Origin: Candidatus Cloacimonadota bacterium
Lineage (GTDB): Bacteria > Cloacimonadota > Cloacimonadia > Cloacimonadales > TCS61
Length of the DNA stretch: 58,489 nt
Assembly (NCBI GenBank): GCA_030595905.1
Contig: JAUVLE010000001.1
Span: forward strand, 1-58,489
Reading direction: 5' to 3'
Shown piece by piece: positions 8,007-35,101 of this stretch; positions within the stretch are counted from its first letter, which is position 1, and each line of letters opens with the position of its first letter. The notes below the pieces were generated by a model. The model had not been told where the DNA came from. It did not search any database and saw only the letters and a list, made by a program, of their open reading frames with translations. A program made the translations under genes and the position numbers.

Positions 8007-8030
8007 TTAGCAACGAACAAATGACTAACC
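8007..8030. repeat. dispersed intergenic repeat, TTAGCAACGAAC...ACTAAC family (copy 1)
   Basis: ttagcaacgaacaaatgactaacc. Related copies lie at 24099-24134, 24144-24179, 24613-24638 (inverted) and 34656-34678 (inverted). Confidence 0.7.
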
Positions 8031-8227
8031 GCAAAGGCGCAAAGTACGCGAAGAAAAAGTACTACATTCTCCTTTCGATGTGTTCAGTGTTCTTCGGTGT
8101 TTCATTTCTTTATTGCATCTAACAATACGAACAAAAAAAATAACCACTAAGAACACAAAGCAACGCTAAAAATTTTGTCCTTTATCTTAGTGCTTCTTAG
8201 CGAACTTCGCGGCTAATTTCTTCAATT

Positions 8228-8926
8228 TTAAATCGCATACGGTCCCGGAATCAATCTCCAGCCCCAGATATATTCCAGAACGCTCCAGGCTGTTAGAAGC
8301 CCAAAATACGACCAGAATACGATATTGTTAATTTTTTTACTTTTCCTTGCTTTATAAATTGAAAGTCCTGTTAAAATTACGAAAATCCCGCACATTATAT
8401 AGGTTGTGAAATGTGTTCGTGAAAGCACTTCATATTGAAAGATCATTATGTAGTGCATCGACCAGACGAGCAGGAAACTTGAGAGCGAGAATTGAATAGA
8501 AACCGGTAAATACTTTCTTAAGTTCAGGAATAGAAAGATCGTTAAAACCAGAACCGGCAGAAAATTCCAATGGGCAATTTCCACAGTTGCATCTTTGATA
8601 TACAGATCAGCATTTTCCAAAAATTCACCAAAAAATCCCCAGAAAGATATTCCGCTGATGATTGCCAGGAGATTGGAGCAAAAAACTTTTTTTTCATCCA
8701 ACACCGGGACGGTGTTACCGAAATCAGAATGGTTCAATCGAGACGATTGAACCAACTGAATATTCTTTTGTGATTGAAGAAATAGAATTATTCCAACAAA
8801 AAGCAGAATGAAGCCTGCAAAGAGATAAGGAATATTTCCGGCTCGATTCGTGAAAACAAGAAGCATATAAGTAAAGCCAAAGAATAATAAAGTATAAATA
8901 ACTGTTTTCAATCCGATGTTTTTCAT
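8228..8926 (-). CDS. polytopic membrane protein of unknown function, trailing feoB
   Basis: 232 aa with about six or seven hydrophobic helices. It starts 8 nt after the feoB stop on the same strand. Confidence 0.55.
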   Translation of the reverse strand: MKNIGLKTVIYTLLFFGFTYMLLVFTNRAGNIPYLFAGFILLFVGIILFLQSQKNIQLVQSSRLNHSDFGNTVPVLDEKKVFCSNLLAIISGISFWGFFGEFLENADLYIKDATVEIAHWNFLPVLVLTIFLFLNLRKYLPVSIQFSLSSFLLVWSMHYIMIFQYEVLSRTHFTTYIMCGIFVILTGLSIYKARKSKKINNIVFWSYFGLLTAWSVLEYIWGWRLIPGPYAI

Positions 8927-13462: not shown

Positions 13463-13999
13463 ATGACCGAAGAAAAAAAGAGTGTGAAAAAGAAAAAACT
13501 TACCTTGAATGAAAAATACGAACAACTGCAAAAAGAATATGATGAATTGAAAGATAAAAGAATTCGTGTAATTGCGGAATTTGAAAATTTCAGAAAACGT
13601 TCATTCATAGAAAAAGTTAATTGGATCAAAAATGCCAATGAAAGGATTGTTCTGGATGTCTGTGATGTTCTGGATAATTTTGAACGTGCTCTTCATCCGG
13701 AAGTAGAAAAAAATCGAGAAACCTTTGAAAAAGGTGTTGAACTTATCTTTCAGCAGATAGAAAGTCTTCTTAAAAAAGAAGGCGTGCAAAAGATCGAAGC
13801 TTTGGAAAAGGAATTTAATCCTAATTTCCACGAAGCTCTGGCGCATATACCTTCTGAACTGGAAGAAAACAAAATAACTGCTGTTATCCAGAATGGTTAT
13901 ACGATGAATGAAAAAGTCATCAGACCTGCAAGGGTTGCAGTTTCAAATGGTGAAAAACCGGAGGAAATCAGCAACGAACAAAACGAACAAGAAAAGTAA
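13463..13999 (+). CDS. grpE: nucleotide exchange factor GrpE
   Basis: 178 aa. Coiled-coil N-terminus, then RV.AEFENFRKR...L.V.D.FERA and ...GYTMNEKVIRPARVAVS, the GrpE signature regions. Confidence 0.95.
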   Translation: MTEEKKSVKKKKLTLNEKYEQLQKEYDELKDKRIRVIAEFENFRKRSFIEKVNWIKNANERIVLDVCDVLDNFERALHPEVEKNRETFEKGVELIFQQIESLLKKEGVQKIEALEKEFNPNFHEALAHIPSELEENKITAVIQNGYTMNEKVIRPARVAVSNGEKPEEISNEQNEQEK

Positions 14000-21847: not shown

Positions 21848-23302
21848 TTATTTCACCTGTTCCACAGCCCACTGAATTGCATTTTGCAGCATTTCATCCG
21901 GGGGAGTATCTATAAATCCCTGTTCTGTGACAAGTTTAGTCATACCTCTGGAATAATCGATACCGGCTTTTGCTTTTTGGAAGGCTTCATCCCAGGTCAT
22001 TTCAATTCTGGCAACCCCATCTTTTATTGCCTGCATTGCCACATCGGCAGCTTCTACGGCAAATACTCCAGCTTCGTCCATTGTTGGAACAATACTTTCA
22101 GGATCGATCCCGCGCTTTTCTGCATATTTTGCAAGTGAATGAGCAGCAGCAATAGCCATATTATCCGTAACTTTTTTCGCTCTAACCATCAAAGCACCTT
22201 TCAGAATTCCCGGGAAACCGAGTGAGTTATTTACCTGGTTCGGGAAATCACCGCGACCTGTAGCTACGATGTAAGCACCTGCTTCTTTAGCAGCATAAGG
22301 ATATATTTCTGGAACCGGATTTGCACAGGTAAAGACGATTGCTTTATCTGCCATCGAGCTTATCCATTCCGGTTTTACAGTATCAGGACCCGGCTTGGAA
22401 AGTGCTATCATTACGTCAGCACCTTTGCAGGCTTCGGCAAAATCAGCTATCATCTCAGGATTTGTCTTTTCACAAAGTTCCCACTTACGATAGAAGCGTG
22501 GATCTGCTTTGATATCTTCCCTGTTTTTATGTAAACCGCCTTTAGAATCGAAAAGGCACATTTTTTTCGGATCGCCGCCGGCTGTAAGGATGATCCTGGC
22601 AATAGTTGTATTGGAAGCTCCCGCTCCCAGCATAGCTATTTTCACATCTCCGATCTTTTTGTCTGCTAATTTCAAGGCATTGATCAAGCCTGCCAAAGTT
22701 ACACACGCCGTTCCCTGGGCATCATCATGCCACACGGGAATATCACATTCTTCTCGAAGTGTATCGAGAACTTTGTAACAGTTTGGTTGCGAAATATCTT
22801 CAAGATTGATCGCTCCAAAACTGGGCTGGCACATCTTCACAAATTCAATGATCTTATCTGGATCATGCTCGCCTTTTTCATTATAGCTATCCACACACAA
22901 GGCAACTGCATCCACACCACCGAGGTATTTCATCAGGAAGGCTTTTCCTTCCATCACTCCCAGTCCGCCCGGAGGGGTACAATCTCCATCTCCCAGAACA
23001 CGCGTGGAATCGCTGACCACTGCTACGAAATTTCCTCTGTTTGAAAGTTCAAAACTGGTATCGTTATCATCACGAATGGTTGTGGAAATTTTGGAAACAC
23101 CCGGTGTGTACCAGATATTGAACCAGTTAAATCCAAAAACTCCTGCTTTGGGAACGGTCTGGATCTTACCACCATAAAATTTGTGGGCAACTTCTGCCAT
23201 TTTTTTCAGGAACAGTGTTTTTGCTTTTGCTATCTGTTCCTGGCTAAAATTCTCGGGAAACACTTCATTAAGATTTGTGAGATCAATTTTTAGTTTTTTC
23301 AT
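21848..23302 (-). CDS. NAD(P)-dependent malic enzyme (oxaloacetate-decarboxylating malate dehydrogenase)
   Basis: 484 aa of the short bacterial malic-enzyme type. It has VVSDSTRVLGDGD, GVMEGKA and GAGASNT (Rossmann) motifs. Confidence 0.85.
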   Translation of the reverse strand: MKKLKIDLTNLNEVFPENFSQEQIAKAKTLFLKKMAEVAHKFYGGKIQTVPKAGVFGFNWFNIWYTPGVSKISTTIRDDNDTSFELSNRGNFVAVVSDSTRVLGDGDCTPPGGLGVMEGKAFLMKYLGGVDAVALCVDSYNEKGEHDPDKIIEFVKMCQPSFGAINLEDISQPNCYKVLDTLREECDIPVWHDDAQGTACVTLAGLINALKLADKKIGDVKIAMLGAGASNTTIARIILTAGGDPKKMCLFDSKGGLHKNREDIKADPRFYRKWELCEKTNPEMIADFAEACKGADVMIALSKPGPDTVKPEWISSMADKAIVFTCANPVPEIYPYAAKEAGAYIVATGRGDFPNQVNNSLGFPGILKGALMVRAKKVTDNMAIAAAHSLAKYAEKRGIDPESIVPTMDEAGVFAVEAADVAMQAIKDGVARIEMTWDEAFQKAKAGIDYSRGMTKLVTEQGFIDTPPDEMLQNAIQWAVEQVK

Positions 23303-23527: not shown

Positions 23528-24082
23528 TTACCTCTTATACTTCTCCACACCTTCTTGATAAATATCTTTTCCGTAAATATCATTTGCTACGATGCAGGGA
23601 AAGTTCTCAACTCTCAGTTCCCGTATAGCTTCTGTTCCCAGGTCTTCGTAAGCTATTACTTTTGCTTCTTTGATAGACTCGGCAACTACCACGGCAGCCC
23701 CGCCGATAGCAGCAAAATAAACAGCTTTGTTCTTAACCATGGAATCGATCACCAGCTGGCTGCGAGGACCTTTGCCGATCATCGCTTTAAGTCCGGCATC
23801 GAGTAGAGCGGGAGCATAAGGGTCCATCCTGTAGCTGGTGGTTGGACCGGCAGAACCGATCGGTTTTCCGGGAGGAGCAGGAGCAGGACCCACATAATAG
23901 ATCACCTGTCCTTTAATATCAAAGGGAAGTTCTTCGTTCTTTTCCAATAATTCTACGAGTCTTTTATGAGCAGCATCCCTGCCGGTATAAATTATCCCGG
24001 TAATGAAAACTTTATCTCCGATTTGAAGTTGAGCAAGCTCATCTTCTTTTAACGGAGTTTGTAAATATTTTGTTTTTGGCAT
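23528..24082 (-). CDS. class I fumarate hydratase, beta (C-terminal domain) subunit
   Basis: 184 aa. GIIYTGRDAAHKRL, GPAPAPPGKPIGSAGPTTS.RMD and AIGGAA are typical of the Fe-S hydro-lyase beta subunit (FumA C-terminus/TtdB type). Confidence 0.85.
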   Translation of the reverse strand: MPKTKYLQTPLKEDELAQLQIGDKVFITGIIYTGRDAAHKRLVELLEKNEELPFDIKGQVIYYVGPAPAPPGKPIGSAGPTTSYRMDPYAPALLDAGLKAMIGKGPRSQLVIDSMVKNKAVYFAAIGGAAVVVAESIKEAKVIAYEDLGTEAIRELRVENFPCIVANDIYGKDIYQEGVEKYKR

Positions 24083-24098
24083 TTTTTCTCCTTCTTTT

Positions 24099-24179
24099 TT
24101 AGCAACGAACTACACGAACAATAACTAACAAAACACTCTATTCTTTGCAACGAACCAAACCAACAATAGCTAACAAATC
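24099..24179. repeat. two direct copies of the TTAGCAACGAAC...ACTAACAAA repeat flanking the GxxExxY gene stop
   Basis: ttagcaacgaactacacgaacaataactaacaaaac (24099-24134) and tttgcaacgaaccaaaccaacaatagctaacaaatc (24144-24179). Confidence 0.75.
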
Positions 24180-24573
24180 ACTTCTTTGATGTTATGAAAT
24201 TCGGAATTCTTATGATATCAAAACCTAATCTGTCATTTGGAAAGTTTATCAGAATTCCCAACGCGTAATTTGTTGTTTTCAAATAGTTTAATAATTGTGC
24301 TTTATGAACTTCGGTAATTTTTGAAACACACTTCAATTCAATTATGATTTTTTCATCAACAATAATATCAGCACAATATTCACCGATTATTTTCCCTTTA
24401 TAAAACACATTTAATTTCGTTTGAGTTTTTACGATAAAACCCAATAATTCCAATTCAATTCTTAAAGCATTTTCATATACTTTTTCCAAGAATCCGTTTC
24501 CCAAATTCTTGCGAACCTCGATACATGCTTTCTTTATTTTGTAAAATTTTTCTTTAAAAATTAAATTAATCAT
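24178..24573 (-). CDS. GxxExxY protein (PD-(D/E)XK nuclease-fold family)
   Basis: 131 aa. It contains the eponymous GFLEKVYENAL motif, then D...E.K (ADIIVDEKIIIELK) and ...QLLNYLK. The DNA is AT-richer than the flanking fumarase genes. Confidence 0.8.
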   Translation of the reverse strand: MINLIFKEKFYKIKKACIEVRKNLGNGFLEKVYENALRIELELLGFIVKTQTKLNVFYKGKIIGEYCADIIVDEKIIIELKCVSKITEVHKAQLLNYLKTTNYALGILINFPNDRLGFDIIRIPNFITSKK

Positions 24574-24612
24574 TTTTCTCTCTTTTAACTAACAAACCGT
24601 CTTTTTTTGTTC

Positions 24613-24638
24613 GATTTGTTAGTTTGGTTCGTTGCTAA
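24613..24638. repeat. inverted copy of the TTAGCAACGAAC...ACTAAC repeat upstream of the GxxExxY gene
   Basis: gatttgttagtttggttcgttgctaa is the reverse complement of TTAGCAACGAACCAAACTAACAAATC. In addition, aactaacaaa (24587-24596) pairs with tttgttagtt (24616-24625). Confidence 0.75.
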
Positions 24639-24641
24639 TCT

Positions 24642-25487
24642 TCATATCACTGCGCTTTTATGTCGTGCTGCATGGCACTGCACGTTCACCGCCACAGGCA
24701 TGGAAGCAATATGACATGGTTTTGATAAAATGAAAACACCAAGAGCCGTGGTTCTGCCACCCAGTCCCTGCGGTCCGATCCCCAGGTTATTGATTTTCTC
24801 TAAAATTTCTTCTTCCACTTTCGCCCATTTCGGATCAGGATTTTTTTGATCTAATGAACGCAGTAAAGATTTTTTTGCCAGAAGTGCACTCTGTTCAAAA
24901 TCACCACCGAGTCCGATTCCAACAACAACCGGCGGGCAGGGATTTCCACCTGATCTGCTGATCCTGTCCACAACGAAATCCACAACTCCTTCGATCCCGT
25001 CGGCAGCTTTCATCATTTTTACTTCGCTCATATTTTCCGAACCGCCGCCTTTGGGTGCAACCGTAATTTTTATTTTATCACCCGGAACAATATCCGTATA
25101 AATGAGCGCCGGAGTATTATCTTTTGTGTTCTTTCGCTCGATTATCGGGTCGTCAACCATCGACTTTCGCAGATATCCGTCTTTATAACCCTGACGAACT
25201 CCTTCATTAATTGCTTCGACAAAATCTCCTCCAACAAGATGAACATCCTGTCCAAGCTCGATAAATACAACTGCCACGCCGGTATCCTGACATATCGGCA
25301 TTTTCTCTTTTGCAGATAGTTCATAGTTTTCCAGGAGGATCGAAAGTACTTCCTTGCCGGTTTCCGATTCTTCCTTTTCATAGAATTCTTTGATCTTCTT
25401 AATCACATCTTCACCAATATAATAATTGGCATCGATACACAACTTCCTGATAACAGGAATGATCTCTTTCACATCGATCTGGCGCAT
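24642..25487 (-). CDS. class I fumarate hydratase, alpha (N-terminal domain) subunit
   Basis: 281 aa. MPICQDTG, GGGSEN and other features of the Fe-S type hydro-lyase alpha subunit (FumA N-terminus/TtdA type). Confidence 0.85.
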   Translation of the reverse strand: MRQIDVKEIIPVIRKLCIDANYYIGEDVIKKIKEFYEKEESETGKEVLSILLENYELSAKEKMPICQDTGVAVVFIELGQDVHLVGGDFVEAINEGVRQGYKDGYLRKSMVDDPIIERKNTKDNTPALIYTDIVPGDKIKITVAPKGGGSENMSEVKMMKAADGIEGVVDFVVDRISRSGGNPCPPVVVGIGLGGDFEQSALLAKKSLLRSLDQKNPDPKWAKVEEEILEKINNLGIGPQGLGGRTTALGVFILSKPCHIASMPVAVNVQCHAARHKSAVI

Positions 25488-25519: not shown

Positions 25520-28093
25520 TCAATTAACTGAAGTAATATAATAGAATTTTTTATTATCCGCTGTTGGAAGCGGTGCAGTCCAGCTTGTTTCATTATATGA
25601 TCCGGTAAAATCTTCGTCAAAACCCGAATAAGGATCATTTGACGAATATACTTTATAAGTATTTCTATTGCGAGCAGCAGACCAGGTGAAATAAACCGAA
25701 TCTGCATTGATAGTTACCCTGACATCTAATGGAACAGGAGGACTTACAGCTTCATCCTGATGGAAATAAAAAGCACCCATATCTGCTATTGTGGTATCAG
25801 GATCAAGTGGTGAGTAAAGACTACCGGTATCGATACATGGTGATTTTGTTTCATCATTTACAGGATAATTTGCCCAGGTTATTTGATAATCACCGTTGAC
25901 AGGATCAGCAAATAAAGGATTGGCATCAATATTACCATCACCTGGACTTCCACCTTCAACATCAGAATATTCTACTGTTACAGAACAGAAACCGTCTTCT
26001 CCAATTTCATGTGGTATGTCGTCCCAGAGTATGCAGTTTGTAAAATCAGGAAAGCTATAATTACAGGAATATAACCCACCTCCTGGATTCGGAGAATTAT
26101 GATTTGCCGTATTATTACTTATAGTAACATTTGTTAAATCAGGATAACAAAAATGGTCGCAGTATATTCCACCTCCAAGACCGAAAGCTTCACTTACAGC
26201 TTCATTGTTATAGATACAATCATTTTCTAAAATAGGTGTACAATTTTCCCAAATATGAATACCGCCACCTGCTTCTTCTGAAGTATTATCTCTGATTATT
26301 GAACGTTTTATTGTTGGACTTGAATAATTATAAATGAAGATCCCGCCACCGCCGCCTGTAGATGAATTATTGGAAATGATGCAATTATTTATTAGAATAT
26401 CTGAATTATTAAGATAAATTGCTCCACCATTATTATTGGGATAAGTTCCGCTTGCTTTTCCGTATTGCAGCTTACAATAAGATAATATTGAGTTATCCTG
26501 TCCGTTTGTGTTTTGATCGATAAAGCGGAGTCCATTCCAACCTGCTGTAGAATCTTGCGGAACAAAATTAATGTATCTCTGCCAATTTCCTTCTGCTAAT
26601 AATCTACCATAAATATTAAATTTATAATGTTCATTGAAAACAACATCCACTCCGGGTTCAATTGTTAATTGACTTCCATTCGGAATTGTTATTTCGCCAT
26701 TAATACAATAAGGACTGTTTGCATGCGTCCAGGTGCCACTGACAGCTCCACCTGCTATCTGGGTATTACAATTCCAGTCATTTGTAATATGATAAAATGT
26801 GGCATAATCCCAGGCTGCATCACCACTGTCAATAAACCATGTCATAGTCCTATCAATATTATTTGTTGTATGCGCACCGAATAATTCGTTTCCATAATCA
26901 TCATAACCATGACAAATAATTGCATGTTTATAATGACCTTGATATTGACCTGTACCTCCTTCATGAAATCCAATAATTGCAATATCACCAACAGTAAAAT
27001 TTGCAGGAATATGGTTATTAGGCTCTACTCCATTTTCCCAGCCATTAGTATGAAAATCAACAATATTTGTCTCAATATCAGATTGTACTGAAAGGAAATT
27101 ATGCAGATTGCTACAGTTTACAATGCAGCCTTCTGCATTTGCATTATTTGCATAGGTTATATCCTCATAATAACCGGCAATTAAACATTGAGATGCAAAA
27201 TTGCAGCAATCACCACCTTGAGAAGCATAGTTTGTATATGCAGAATTATAATATGTCGAATCAGGTCCCCAATATTGTATACAATAATTTGCTGAAGCTT
27301 GTCCATTCCAATCTAAATCTCTACCTTTGAAATTTAAATTATTAATTTTATCATTATTATCTTTAGTTTCTATCTTTTTTTTGTCTTTATTTTCAATTTT
27401 ATTCTGTAATATTTTTAAACCCGCTTTAGCTACTTTCCTTATTGTTTGAATACAGGTCATCCTTCGATATTGTTCTGTTTTACCTTTCCAATAGATAGAA
27501 TTTTTATCAGGATAACCAGTATATTCTATATTCCATTTGTCTGAATTTATTCCATTTGCATAATATTCAAGCTTATCTATAATCAAGTTATCAGAAATCC
27601 CCATATAGACAAGTGTTCTTGCAGCAGAAACCTGCAATGCAGGATATTCATCATCAAGAAATTCATAGAGTTTTTTAATTATTATGGGTTTGTATTTGTT
27701 AATATATGAACTATCAGCATCAATTACAACATACTGTCCTGCCATCTTTAGCCACTCTATTGAGCGAGGGTCCAATCCTCCTTCCGGTTTATACCACCAT
27801 TTCGAGATGTAATCGATTCCCCATTTTTGCGTTAATTTTGTGCCATAACACATATATTTATAATAATATTCAATCTCCCGAACATCACCACGCATAATTT
27901 GCATTTCTGCATCCGGTCCGGTTTCTTCATAAGCTATAGCGATTCCTTTTTCAAAACATGAATCCAGTTTTGATAGAATACGAATTTTTGCTTCTTCCCA
28001 ATAAGTTGGTCTTTCTTTTTCTGTTCCGTTTACATTAATCACATTAAGCAATAAAATAGAAAATATTACCAATAAAATTGCTTTCTTTTGCAT
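25520..28093 (-). CDS. secreted multidomain protein: Cys/His amidase-like domain, right-handed beta-helix repeats and an FN3-like tail
   Basis: 857 aa with a signal peptide. GGDCCNFASQCLIAGY plus a downstream KHAIICHGYD resemble the 'putative amidase domain' (Amidase_6) Cys/His pair. Repeated NNxxxxGGG(G)I(Y/H) units indicate a pectate-lyase-like beta-helix. The C-terminal ~60 aa are shared with the 53709 gene. There is no T9SS CTD. Confidence 0.65.
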   Translation of the reverse strand: MQKKAILLVIFSILLLNVINVNGTEKERPTYWEEAKIRILSKLDSCFEKGIAIAYEETGPDAEMQIMRGDVREIEYYYKYMCYGTKLTQKWGIDYISKWWYKPEGGLDPRSIEWLKMAGQYVVIDADSSYINKYKPIIIKKLYEFLDDEYPALQVSAARTLVYMGISDNLIIDKLEYYANGINSDKWNIEYTGYPDKNSIYWKGKTEQYRRMTCIQTIRKVAKAGLKILQNKIENKDKKKIETKDNNDKINNLNFKGRDLDWNGQASANYCIQYWGPDSTYYNSAYTNYASQGGDCCNFASQCLIAGYYEDITYANNANAEGCIVNCSNLHNFLSVQSDIETNIVDFHTNGWENGVEPNNHIPANFTVGDIAIIGFHEGGTGQYQGHYKHAIICHGYDDYGNELFGAHTTNNIDRTMTWFIDSGDAAWDYATFYHITNDWNCNTQIAGGAVSGTWTHANSPYCINGEITIPNGSQLTIEPGVDVVFNEHYKFNIYGRLLAEGNWQRYINFVPQDSTAGWNGLRFIDQNTNGQDNSILSYCKLQYGKASGTYPNNNGGAIYLNNSDILINNCIISNNSSTGGGGGIFIYNYSSPTIKRSIIRDNTSEEAGGGIHIWENCTPILENDCIYNNEAVSEAFGLGGGIYCDHFCYPDLTNVTISNNTANHNSPNPGGGLYSCNYSFPDFTNCILWDDIPHEIGEDGFCSVTVEYSDVEGGSPGDGNIDANPLFADPVNGDYQITWANYPVNDETKSPCIDTGSLYSPLDPDTTIADMGAFYFHQDEAVSPPVPLDVRVTINADSVYFTWSAARNRNTYKVYSSNDPYSGFDEDFTGSYNETSWTAPLPTADNKKFYYITSVN

Positions 28094-34655: not shown

Positions 34656-34678
34656 GGTTAGTTTTAGTTCGTTGCTAA
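34656..34678. repeat. TTAGCAACGAAC...ACTAAC family repeat (inverted copy) in the hdrC-hdrB spacer
   Basis: ggttagttttagttcgttgctaa. Compare 24613-24638, gatttgttagtttggttcgttgctaa. Confidence 0.7.
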
Positions 34679-34696
34679 TCCAATTTTCCATCTAAA

Positions 34697-35101
34697 TTAA
34701 CCTGTGAATTTTCTGAAACTTCCCACAACGGCTATCGTAGGTAATTTCAAGGCTTCTTCGTCACTGATCTCTTTAATATCGATCTCATCGATCGCTCCTC
34801 GCAATTTCACCTGTCTTAGTGCTTCGGAGACTTTTGAAAGATCGAGTTTTCGTGGACATCTTACCGTGCAGGTGAAGCAGGAAGCACAGAGCCACATTGT
34901 TTTGGAATCCATCACGCTTTCCTGTCCCAGCATTACCAAACGCATTATCTGTGATGGGTTGATATCCATTTCACTGACGAAAGGACAACCGGCTGAACAC
35001 GTTCCGCACTGTTCACAAAGAGTGATCTGCTCTCCACTCAATTCCGTTATTTTTTCAAGGAAATCAGTATTCTTATCTTTCAGTTTTATTATTTGTGCCA
35101 T
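34697..35101 (-). CDS. HdrC-like 2x[4Fe-4S] ferredoxin subunit
   Basis: 134 aa with CEQCGTCSAGCP and CASCFTCTVRCP. Confidence 0.8.
   Translation of the reverse strand: MAQIIKLKDKNTDFLEKITELSGEQITLCEQCGTCSAGCPFVSEMDINPSQIMRLVMLGQESVMDSKTMWLCASCFTCTVRCPRKLDLSKVSEALRQVKLRGAIDEIDIKEISDEEALKLPTIAVVGSFRKFTG

Follow-up and report, generated by a model that had tools for sequence, protein, structure and literature searches.

The window considered here is a stretch of 58,489 nucleotides (nt) on contig JAUVLE010000001.1 of a Candidatus Cloacimonadota genome (assembly GCA_030595905.1). It encodes both subunits of class I fumarase, and the two subunit genes, fumA and fumB, are separated by a 540-bp block (24,099 to 24,638) that carries one gene of the GxxExxY family between inverted repeats. 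We refer to this block as the cassette, to its repeats as arms, to the genome of the window as G000 and to related genomes by other G numbers; L numbers denote loci. The position of the block between the subunit genes, its coordinates and its sequences are exactly as an earlier note on this DNA had given them, and the AT-richness that the note had pointed out is borne out by a GC content of 25-31%, as compared with 41-54% in the fumarase genes. The assignment of the cassette gene to the GxxExxY family was likewise correct: its 131-residue product matches PF13366 (PDDEXK_3) at 8.6e-39, with 133 bits against a cut-off of 22, and TIGR04256 at 4.8e-39, with 133.3 bits against a cut-off of 35. In the list of open reading frames (ORFs) the minus-strand gene order is fumA, GxxExxY gene, fumB and malic enzyme gene, and the features of the locus are as follows, in the direction of that strand.

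24642..25487, minus strand: fumA, class I fumarate hydratase alpha subunit, upstream host gene; 281 aa, Pfam Fumerase 1.5e-118
24613..24638, minus strand: upstream (5') arm, TTAGCAACGAACCAAACTAACAAATC on the coding strand, starting 3 nt past the fumA stop codon; z = 10.3
24587..24624, minus strand: local 13-bp hairpin, a mini foldback sharing the inner part of the upstream arm, seen in repeat search and fold
24574..24586, minus strand: ribosome-binding stretch of the cassette, AAAAGAGAGAAAA, preceding the ATG; all paralogues have a GAGG/AGGA-like stretch between arm and ATG
24178..24573, minus strand: intact GxxExxY / PDDEXK_3 gene, 131 aa
24141..24182, minus strand: proximal downstream (3') arm copy, overlapping the GxxExxY stop codon
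24096..24137, minus strand: distal downstream arm copy, a 45-nt tandem duplicate with the outer end GTTCGTTGCTAA; 33/34 identical to the single G008 arm
24083..24098, minus strand: A-tract and fumB ribosome-binding site, AAAAAAGAAGGAGAAAAA, retained host sequence; empty sites read TAA-AAGGAGAAAAC-ATG
23528..24082, minus strand: fumB, class I fumarate hydratase beta subunit, downstream host gene; 184 aa, Fumerase_C 2.1e-60

The inverted copies that had been reported to bound the block are present where they were placed, as one upstream arm that is inverted with respect to two tandem downstream arms: TTAGCAACGAAC begins at 24099 and TTTGCAACGAAC at 24144, and the reverse complement of 24613-24638 is TTAGCAACGAACCAAACTAACAAATC. 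The two downstream copies form a direct pair (24096-24137 and 24141-24182) with 83% identity and a period of 45 nt, and the upstream arm (24616-24638) is 91% complementary to the proximal copy (24144-24166) and 87% complementary to the distal one (24099-24121). The tandem duplication at 24096-24182 was seen only in G000; the arm is single in G008, G004, G069, G074 and G070. The hairpin noticed earlier at the 5' end of the gene extends over 13 nt (24587-24599 and 24612-24624, 92%), and junction comparison showed a fuller hairpin at the matching place in G008 and G004. Each arm consists of 2-4 copies of a short word in a 9-10 bp phase; the word in the window is (C/A)AACGAAC / ACTAAC with an outer TTAGC, the arm sequences being TTAGCAACGAACCAAACTAACAA and the 45-nt downstream unit. 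These repeats are well above chance, since a 16-mer of the repeat occurs six times in the window with up to three mismatches where 0.74 occurrences are expected (none of 100 shuffles reached six), and the flanking inverted-repeat score of the window cassette (L006) lies 10 standard deviations above that of shuffled flanks (z = 10.3).

Filled and empty fumA-fumB sites

fumB was located in 40 relatives, and the gap between fumA and fumB was read in 27 of these, crude ORF calls serving as gene calls in the analysis. In most relatives the gap measures 11-16 nt and comprises a stop codon, a ribosome-binding site and the ATG (the empty site is GTGATATAAAAGGAGAGAGCATG, and the sites of empty alleles are of the GTGATATAAAAGGAGAGAGC type), as opposed to 525-562 nt in carriers of a cassette. 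A GxxExxY gene occupies the gap in G000, G008, G004, G069, G074 and G070 and, more distantly, in G056 and G029. Gene-less foldbacks are found there in G001, G002 and G019 (words CACAGAT/ACGGAT) and in G022 (words AACAGGAT), and the gap of G015 holds the word family of the window without the gene.

The clearest junctions come from G008, which is filled, and G005, which is empty. These two genomes are 97.8% identical in fumA, 96.9% in fumB and 97.4% in the next 900 nt, and the two further cassette loci that they have in common are 96-97% identical throughout. In G005 the site reads GTGAT, ATAAAA, GGAGAGAGCATG, or GTGAT-ATAAAA-GGAGAGAGC-ATG up to the start codon, while in G008 it reads GTGAT, ATAAAA, ATTGGCAACG at one end and GTTTGTTGCTA, ATAAAA, GGAGAGAGCATG at the other, the latter continuing to the start codon as GTTTGTTGCTA-ATAAAA-GGAGAGAGC-ATG. 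The two alleles thus differ by 511 bp, with a direct target duplication of 5-6 bp (ATAAAA, present twice in G008 and once in G005). In the window the first arm starts 3 nt past the fumA stop codon and the last one ends before the A-tract and ribosome-binding site of fumB, and junction positions lie a few bases apart between lineages. These comparisons of aligned alleles show that the 540-bp block was inserted in the A-tract that lies past the fumA stop codon and before the ribosome-binding site of fumB.

The age of the gene was assessed relative to its neighbours by pS, the proportion of synonymous difference (Nei-Gojobori). Between G008 and G004, pS is 0.04 for the GxxExxY gene, 0.34 for fumA and 0.33 for fumB, with synonymous counts of 3/76 in the gene and 63/186 in the flanks (Fisher p = 3.7e-8); between G000 and G008 the corresponding values are 0.20, 0.74 and 0.70, and between G000 and G069/G074/G070 they are 0.43-0.46, 0.69-0.74 and 0.70-0.77. 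In the G000-G008 pair, the flanks are 68-82% identical at the nucleotide level, and the value rises abruptly to 92-97% within the ORF. A lowered synonymous rate caused by extreme AT bias may contribute to the low pS of the gene, but an 8-fold effect cannot plausibly arise in this way. On the fumA tree the carriers occupy four separate places, each beside empty or differently filled relatives. Because pS is far below that of the flanks and the carriers are scattered on the fumA tree, the cassette must have passed between lineages, and these divergence data show, within the limits of the genomes compared, that it spread among related genomes later than their fumarase genes diverged. The G000-G008 pair has a dN/dS of ~0.13, indicating that the protein is maintained by purifying selection. 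The earlier note had taken the block for a small mobile or formerly mobile cassette and had suggested comparing fumarase loci with and without it; the empty sites in relatives, the filled and empty pair with its duplicated 5-6 bp target, and a gene several-fold younger than its flanks all support the inference of mobility.

Relatives with at least 82% identity to the window protein all reside at the fumA-fumB site, and lineages with 63-71% identity are found in other operons (iorAB, dapB and pur genes) of other genomes. Around the fumarase site itself, G000 and its closest relative G001 are 91-99% identical in fumA, 67-72% identical over the first ~450 nt of fumB and 85-97% identical thereafter (L011 and L012), a mosaic whose recombination breakpoints lie at the invaded spacer; among the relatives compared, none was identified as the donor of the 5' part of fumB that diverges in G000.

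Turnover is also seen at other sites. At one of them G000 keeps both arms, but in place of the gene that G001 and G004 have there it carries ~110 nt of an unrelated hairpin repeat. One copy in G001 has an internal deletion and one a frameshift, and at one site common to G008 and G004 the cassette is 78% and the flank 90% identical. A separate observation concerns the pur genes: in G004 a purH-like and a purC-like gene have a GxxExxY cassette between them (L073), and the matching place in G000 (contig C138:8211-8472) holds two gene-less elements and no GxxExxY cassette, together with a ~35-nt duplication of the ribosome-binding site and first codons of the downstream gene (ATGAATTATTTAGACAAA… / ATGAAATATTTAGATAAG…).

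The nuclease and the word arrays

The GxxExxY protein of the window contains the motifs G27-F-L-E30-K-V-Y33, D69, E79-L-K81, H90 and Q93-x-x-x-Y97 (Q93-L-L-N-Y97 in the window), the first three of which are invariant or nearly so in 61 sequences; the invariant residues E30, D69, E79-x-K81 and Q93-x-x-x-Y97 are the motifs of the RecB-like branch of PD-(D/E)XK nucleases. An AlphaFold (AF2) model based on the 61-sequence alignment has a pLDDT of 91.3 and a pTM of 0.85, and the nearest folds found by Foldseek are Cas4 SSO0001 (E 1.3e-4, TM 0.50-0.57), lambda exonuclease, RecE and MGME1, with E from 1e-4 to 1e-2 and TM of only ~0.5. A sequence search of solved structures revealed no relative, and PADLOC gave weak Cas4 matches only (E = 0.003). 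The protein is not a Cas4 proper, having two cysteines (C17 and C82) and no four-cysteine Fe-S set, and its neighbours are fumarase genes. K/R prevails at residue 91, beside the invariant H90, where the words are of the ...GAA type, and E/Q where they are of the ...GGA/AGA type, and K91 is paired with AACGAAC in the window; this tendency has exceptions, is confounded by phylogeny and is exploratory. As a side note, the paralogue at contig C35:1421-1795 (L008) has N in place of the catalytic D (ANLIVE for ADIxVE), and its G001 orthologue has a 124-nt internal deletion.

The 2.9 Mb genome of G000 gives 10 PF13366 matches that correspond to nine genes, so that the earlier description of GxxExxY genes as multi-copy and scattered holds, and all nine genes are framed by arrays of short words. 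The note had also proposed to test whether every copy is flanked by the same inverted repeat, and in that form the test fails: the other eight genes have words different from that of the window, although the design recurs. The words seen are ACACCGA in the C157 paralogue, CACGAAT in the C98 paralogue, CACAGAG, CACAGAC, ACGGATA, CGCAAAG, CCACGAAG and the AACGAAC/ACTAAC of the window, and five of the nine cassettes are simple inverted pairs. Nor is the repeat private to the cassette, being a member of a family of word arrays found throughout the genome, most of which lack a GxxExxY gene. Every word family is present many times without the gene, and each of the larger ones (ACACYGA, CACAGAG, ACGGATA, CGCAAAG and the GCAACGAAC of the window) numbers 25-44 arrays in the genome, as opposed to 0-8 in shuffles, and only 1-2 genes; totals were compared with shuffles because ORF-based calls over-call coding on T-poor arrays, which makes the split between intergenic and coding arrays unreliable. 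Arrays of the TTAGCAACGAAC type occur without a gene at ~40 other places, mostly as solitary arms that adjoin a stop codon or a ribosome-binding site and point their TTAGC end outward. When the whole genome was scanned for long inverted repeats (seeds of 9 nt, arms of 20 nt or more), only ~70 loci appeared, mostly chance-like, which shows that the majority of arrays are single arms and do not form foldbacks. A sigma-54 or sigma-70 promoter was also considered for GTTCGTTGCTAA, which lies upstream of many genes, and rejected: it stands too close to the ATG, and the motif is found just as often after stop codons.

The association between gene and arrays extends far beyond this genome. In a sample of 130 distinct cassettes from Cloacimonadota relatives and ~15 other phyla, one archaeon included, a flanking inverted repeat with z > 4 was found in 59% of the cassettes and in 7% of 73 control genes from the same loci; with z > 6 the shares are 50% and 4%. 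A TTAGCC-like outer end occurs at both ends in 20 of the 130 cassettes, compared with 2 in the wrong orientation, and inward of it there are 2-4 words of the form C-R-C-N-G/A-A, spaced by 9-10 bp in 42 of 52 arms. The TTAGCAACGAAC of the window is one base off the TTAGCCACGAAC of cassettes in Acidobacteriota and Actinomycetota. The protein tree tracks the arm word type with 25 changes, as compared with 41 in shuffles (minimum 34), and it fits the word type at least as well as it fits the host phylum. Since inverted arrays recur across phyla and the protein tree follows the word type, gene and arms travel or co-evolve together.

Several arrays in other contexts were seen in passing. One spacer of the window, 8008-8230, contains no gene and at least four adjoining word-array families (TAGCAACGAAC..ACTAAC; CGCAAAGGCGCAAAGTACGCGAAG; the complement of ACACCGA words; and CCACTAAGAACACAAAG with its inverted partner), which are the families that frame other GxxExxY paralogues in G000. 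More solitary TTAGCAACGAAC-type arms lie directly past gene ends at 13969-13984 and 34662-34710, and the copy at 34662 (minus strand) runs on into a GC hairpin ending in ...GGGACAGGCAAAG. Composites of arm, hairpin and CAGGCAAA occur at ~20 sites of the genome, and at contig C85:11279-12170 two of them, inverted, bracket a 235-aa ORF resembling SAM-dependent methyltransferases; because of this case, the arrays can be taken to flank other genes too. At contigs C53:~13935 and C282:~2468, an array-like TTAGCATCGAACAAAACCAACAAGACAAACAAAAG lies in frame in the apparent C-terminal sorting domain of two secreted proteins (…NPFNP…ISFSIEQNQQDKQKKIEIYNIKGQK…), which may be an insertion that was absorbed into the coding sequence.

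Transcription and the level of recognition

No promoter-like or terminator-like site was found on the minus strand inside the cassette. The only strong minus-strand promoter-like site near the operon is a sigma-70-like match, TTGACG-17-TATAAT, upstream of fumA (25592..25620, minus strand), which is a consensus match only, and the next gene after fumB on the same strand encodes malic enzyme (21848..23302, minus strand; Malic_M, malic). With respect to their two called neighbours, 76 of 107 cassettes are co-directional with both, 31 lie at convergent or divergent junctions and none is antisense to both. Because the cassette has no promoter-like or terminator-like site of its own and is co-oriented with its neighbours, it is probably read from the host operon transcript. 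The element, judged from these features of the DNA, would depend on transcription of the host operon without interrupting it.

The arms could also act in such a transcript. In the predicted minus-strand RNA a 12-bp outer stem, UUAGCAACGAAC / GUUCGUUGCUAA, encloses the whole cassette and is accompanied by the 13-bp local hairpin (minimum free energy, MFE, -120.8 kcal/mol, z = -4.1), and thus the pairing of the outer copies across the cassette that the earlier note had envisaged does form in silico. If the pairing mattered in RNA, mismatches that leave a G.U pair on the sense strand might be favoured; in 65 cassettes the arm mismatches are 47 of the G.U type and 44 of the A.C type (p = 0.83), together with 139 transversions. 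At a permissive threshold Rfam gave no match over 23900-24800. Since there is no sense-strand bias among the mismatches, most arms are solitary, the words are phased at about a helical turn and Rfam has no match, recognition on DNA is favoured. The mismatch counts and the prevalence of solitary arrays likewise give no support to the note's further suggestion that the long stem is an RNase III-type site uncoupling the passenger from the fumarase messenger.

Origin and maintenance of the cassette

The explanation that we consider best, and to which we give about an even chance of being right, is that the block is a selfish cassette, composed of a nuclease and its cognate repeats, that rides on operon transcription. 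The cassette would consist of one gene for a minimal PD-(D/E)XK nuclease of the RecB/Cas4-like type, with its own ribosome-binding site, between inverted word-array arms. The nuclease would bind the phased words on double-stranded DNA, probably as a multimer, and cut at or near the arrays, and the cuts would stimulate repair or recombination leading to copying, exchange or deletion of the DNA between the arms. Gene-less arrays of the same word family would then be targets of the nuclease or relics. Spread at a given site would proceed through recombination within the arms or within the conserved neighbouring genes, and colonisation of new sites would be rare; we know of no case in which a 131-aa nuclease performs strand transfer alone. 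In a wider and more tentative form, for which we see perhaps one chance in three at best, GxxExxY genes and phased arrays may constitute a widespread and so far undescribed class of minimal autonomous element, in which a RecB/Cas4-like nuclease of ~125 aa, the only protein encoded, would read the 9-10-bp-phased words of its own arms, cut there and so drive insertion, exchange and loss. Gene-less arrays would in that case be non-autonomous derivatives, and the niche would be the stop-to-ribosome-binding-site spacers of housekeeping operons, where expression is free.

Several observations weigh against a selfish cassette. All the genomes are metagenome-assembled, the target duplication consists of A-rich sequence and is supported by a single clean filled and empty pair, and a precise deletion between 6-bp repeats would give the identical picture. 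Four of the nine G000 cassettes have directly repeated composite flanks and no simple inverted pair. Moreover, the only ORF of the cassette is the PD-(D/E)XK nuclease and no transposase-type enzyme is encoded, and the G000 paralogues are 41-48% identical to the window protein, with no near-identical pair within any genome examined; for these two reasons transposition to new sites must be rare or not autonomous. The high-identity, conversion-like tract between G008 and G004 extends over the final ~90 nt of fumA and stops within the 3' arm. Like the divergence of the 5' half of fumB in G000, it indicates that recombination around the spacer is one way of spreading, and passive recombination in the conserved flanks could explain the restriction of the closest relatives to a single site with no action of the nuclease. 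Finally, the iorA-iorB cassettes of three genomes have diverged as much as their flanks (pS 0.72-0.73 and 0.71-0.82, respectively, values that are saturated), with a dN like that of a housekeeping gene, so that very long retention is also possible; there the cassette looks like a long-retained and possibly host-useful gene.

Ssn nucleases (GIY-YIG, cd10448) cleave the NTS/SRM repeats that flank their genes, and mobility is not claimed for that system (Chenal et al. 2025, PMC11893778). By analogy, the GxxExxY protein could be a site-specific host nuclease acting on dispersed arrays, for instance in modulating transformation or recombination, and perhaps single-strand-specific, while the gene, like ssnA, merely sits among copies of its own target and moves by ordinary recombination only. 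Such an immobile gene would explain why gene-less arrays outnumber genes by 10-40 to 1, why each paralogue has its own word family, why identical paralogues are absent and why the iorA-iorB cassette is as old as its flanks with a housekeeping-like dN; it also agrees with the demonstration, for GIY-YIG nucleases, of both the gene-between-own-repeats layout and repeat cleavage (PMC11893778), and with the exploratory and phylogeny-confounded tendency of residue 91 to vary with word type. Nevertheless we regard this main rival as unlikely, since gene and arms form a discrete insertion with a duplicated target that is missing from a ~97% identical relative, more than one lineage has a gene several times younger than its flanks, cassettes sit in operon spacers with 0 of 107 antisense to both neighbours, they are often decayed, swapped or lost, and a housekeeping role needs no nine diverged copies in unrelated operons. 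Still less probable is the proposal that GxxExxY is mere cargo, a passenger gene in arrays resembling miniature inverted-repeat transposable elements (MITEs) that an unlinked transposase mobilises in trans. Terminal inverted repeats with a short target duplication are present, as in such elements, gene-less foldbacks of three other word families do occupy the fumA-fumB spacer of relatives, and arms outlast an interior replaced by unrelated sequence; yet arbitrary cargo should not show an association of the arms with one gene family across phyla (59% against 7% of control genes) or a protein phylogeny that follows word type across at least five phyla, and no candidate partner transposase was seen, no systematic search for one having been made.

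An RNA-level device, in which the arms pair in the polycistronic messenger and an RNase III-type stem releases or insulates the passenger, would make use of the stable 12-bp outer stem and 13-bp hairpin and of the co-transcription with the operon to which the orientation and promoter-like site data point. It is very improbable in view of the balance of G.U-type and A.C-type mismatches and the many transversions, of the solitary, partnerless state of most family arrays in the genome, of the 9-10 bp phasing of a conserved word, which points to protein binding on duplex DNA, and of the empty Rfam search. We find it hardly credible, lastly, that an old resident gene is held in ancient fixed synteny between flanks that are similar by chance. 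Eight genomes from at least four genera do have the gene between fumA and fumB, and the gene tree roughly follows the two main host groups, but the closest relatives have empty sites, the synonymous divergence is far below that of the flanks and the repeat statistics are well above chance. Ancient synteny, which the earlier note had named as one outcome that would speak against mobility, is thus rejected by the synonymous data at fumA-fumB, and it holds in a sister lineage at iorA-iorB.

In the searchable literature, the only functional statements found on PF13366 are 'Unknown' and 'multiple transfers' (PMC3424549), and no description of a repeat-armed GxxExxY element was found there; the term GxxExxY itself occurs in only three papers, in one of them incidentally. 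The selfish cassette that we favour resembles several known systems in part. As in the Ssn system, the closest published analogue found, copies of a short repeat lie on either side of a gene for a small single-domain nuclease, the repeat is dispersed without the gene in the same genome, and different homologues have different repeat variants. The enzyme here, however, is PD-(D/E)XK of probable RecB/Cas4 type and not GIY-YIG (cd10448), the repeats form arrays in which a 6-7 nt word recurs in phase and are not single hairpins, each genome has multiple copies with one word family per copy, and gene and arms behave as an insertion with target duplication, the cleavage of the arms being only predicted. 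The REPtrons of REP/RAYT systems likewise have a gene placed between inverted copies of a repeat, and this repeat is much commoner in the rest of the genome, where it stands without the gene as singlets or doublets. RAYTs belong to the HUH/Y1 transposases, as a rule with one copy for each repeat family, and the REP hairpins serve as single-stranded substrates, whereas Pfam and NCBIfam give only PDDEXK_3/GxxExxY and no HUH/Y1 here, with nine diverged copies, phased word arrays and no sense-strand pairing signal.

Free-standing homing genes, e.g. seg/mob of T4-like phages, offer another parallel, and I-Ssp6803I is a homing enzyme of the PD-(D/E)XK type. A lone nuclease gene between conserved genes, present or absent among close relatives and younger than its flanks, faithful to one site and leaving a short conversion-like tract in the neighbouring gene, is common to both; the terminal inverted arrays, the target duplication and the many gene-less copies are the difference, as homing genes are not known to have terminal inverted arrays, a target duplication or a swarm of gene-less repeat copies. 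Multi-site ends are known from Mu, Tn7 and IS21-type elements, and the TnsA of Tn7 is a PD-(D/E)XK nuclease. With such insertion sequences (IS) and with MITEs the cassette shares terminal inverted repeats in which several words resembling binding sites are phased, a short duplication of the target and miniature derivatives that lack the gene, but it has no DDE, HUH, serine or tyrosine recombinase, totals only ~0.5 kb, has no identical copies within the genome, is co-oriented with the operon and lacks a promoter. The ORF-bearing intervening sequences of 23S rRNA, which are excised by RNase III, also place a small ORF between long complementary arms in a host transcript; they differ in that the cassette lies in an mRNA spacer, shows no strand-specific pairing signal and has arms that also occur singly.

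PF13366/GxxExxY is one of the commonest small families of unassigned function in bacteria and archaea, and the fumarase locus makes its biology testable by providing an empty site, an insert whose target is duplicated, a DNA word that goes with the gene, and evidence that the gene has spread laterally in recent times while under purifying selection. For annotation, it follows that cassettes of this kind split operons such as fumAB without breaking them. If the nuclease does read the words of its arms, the family would provide many natural sequence specificities in a 15-kDa enzyme, and it would account for many of the short repeats between genes in Cloacimonadota, Acidobacteriota, Desulfobacterota and other phyla.

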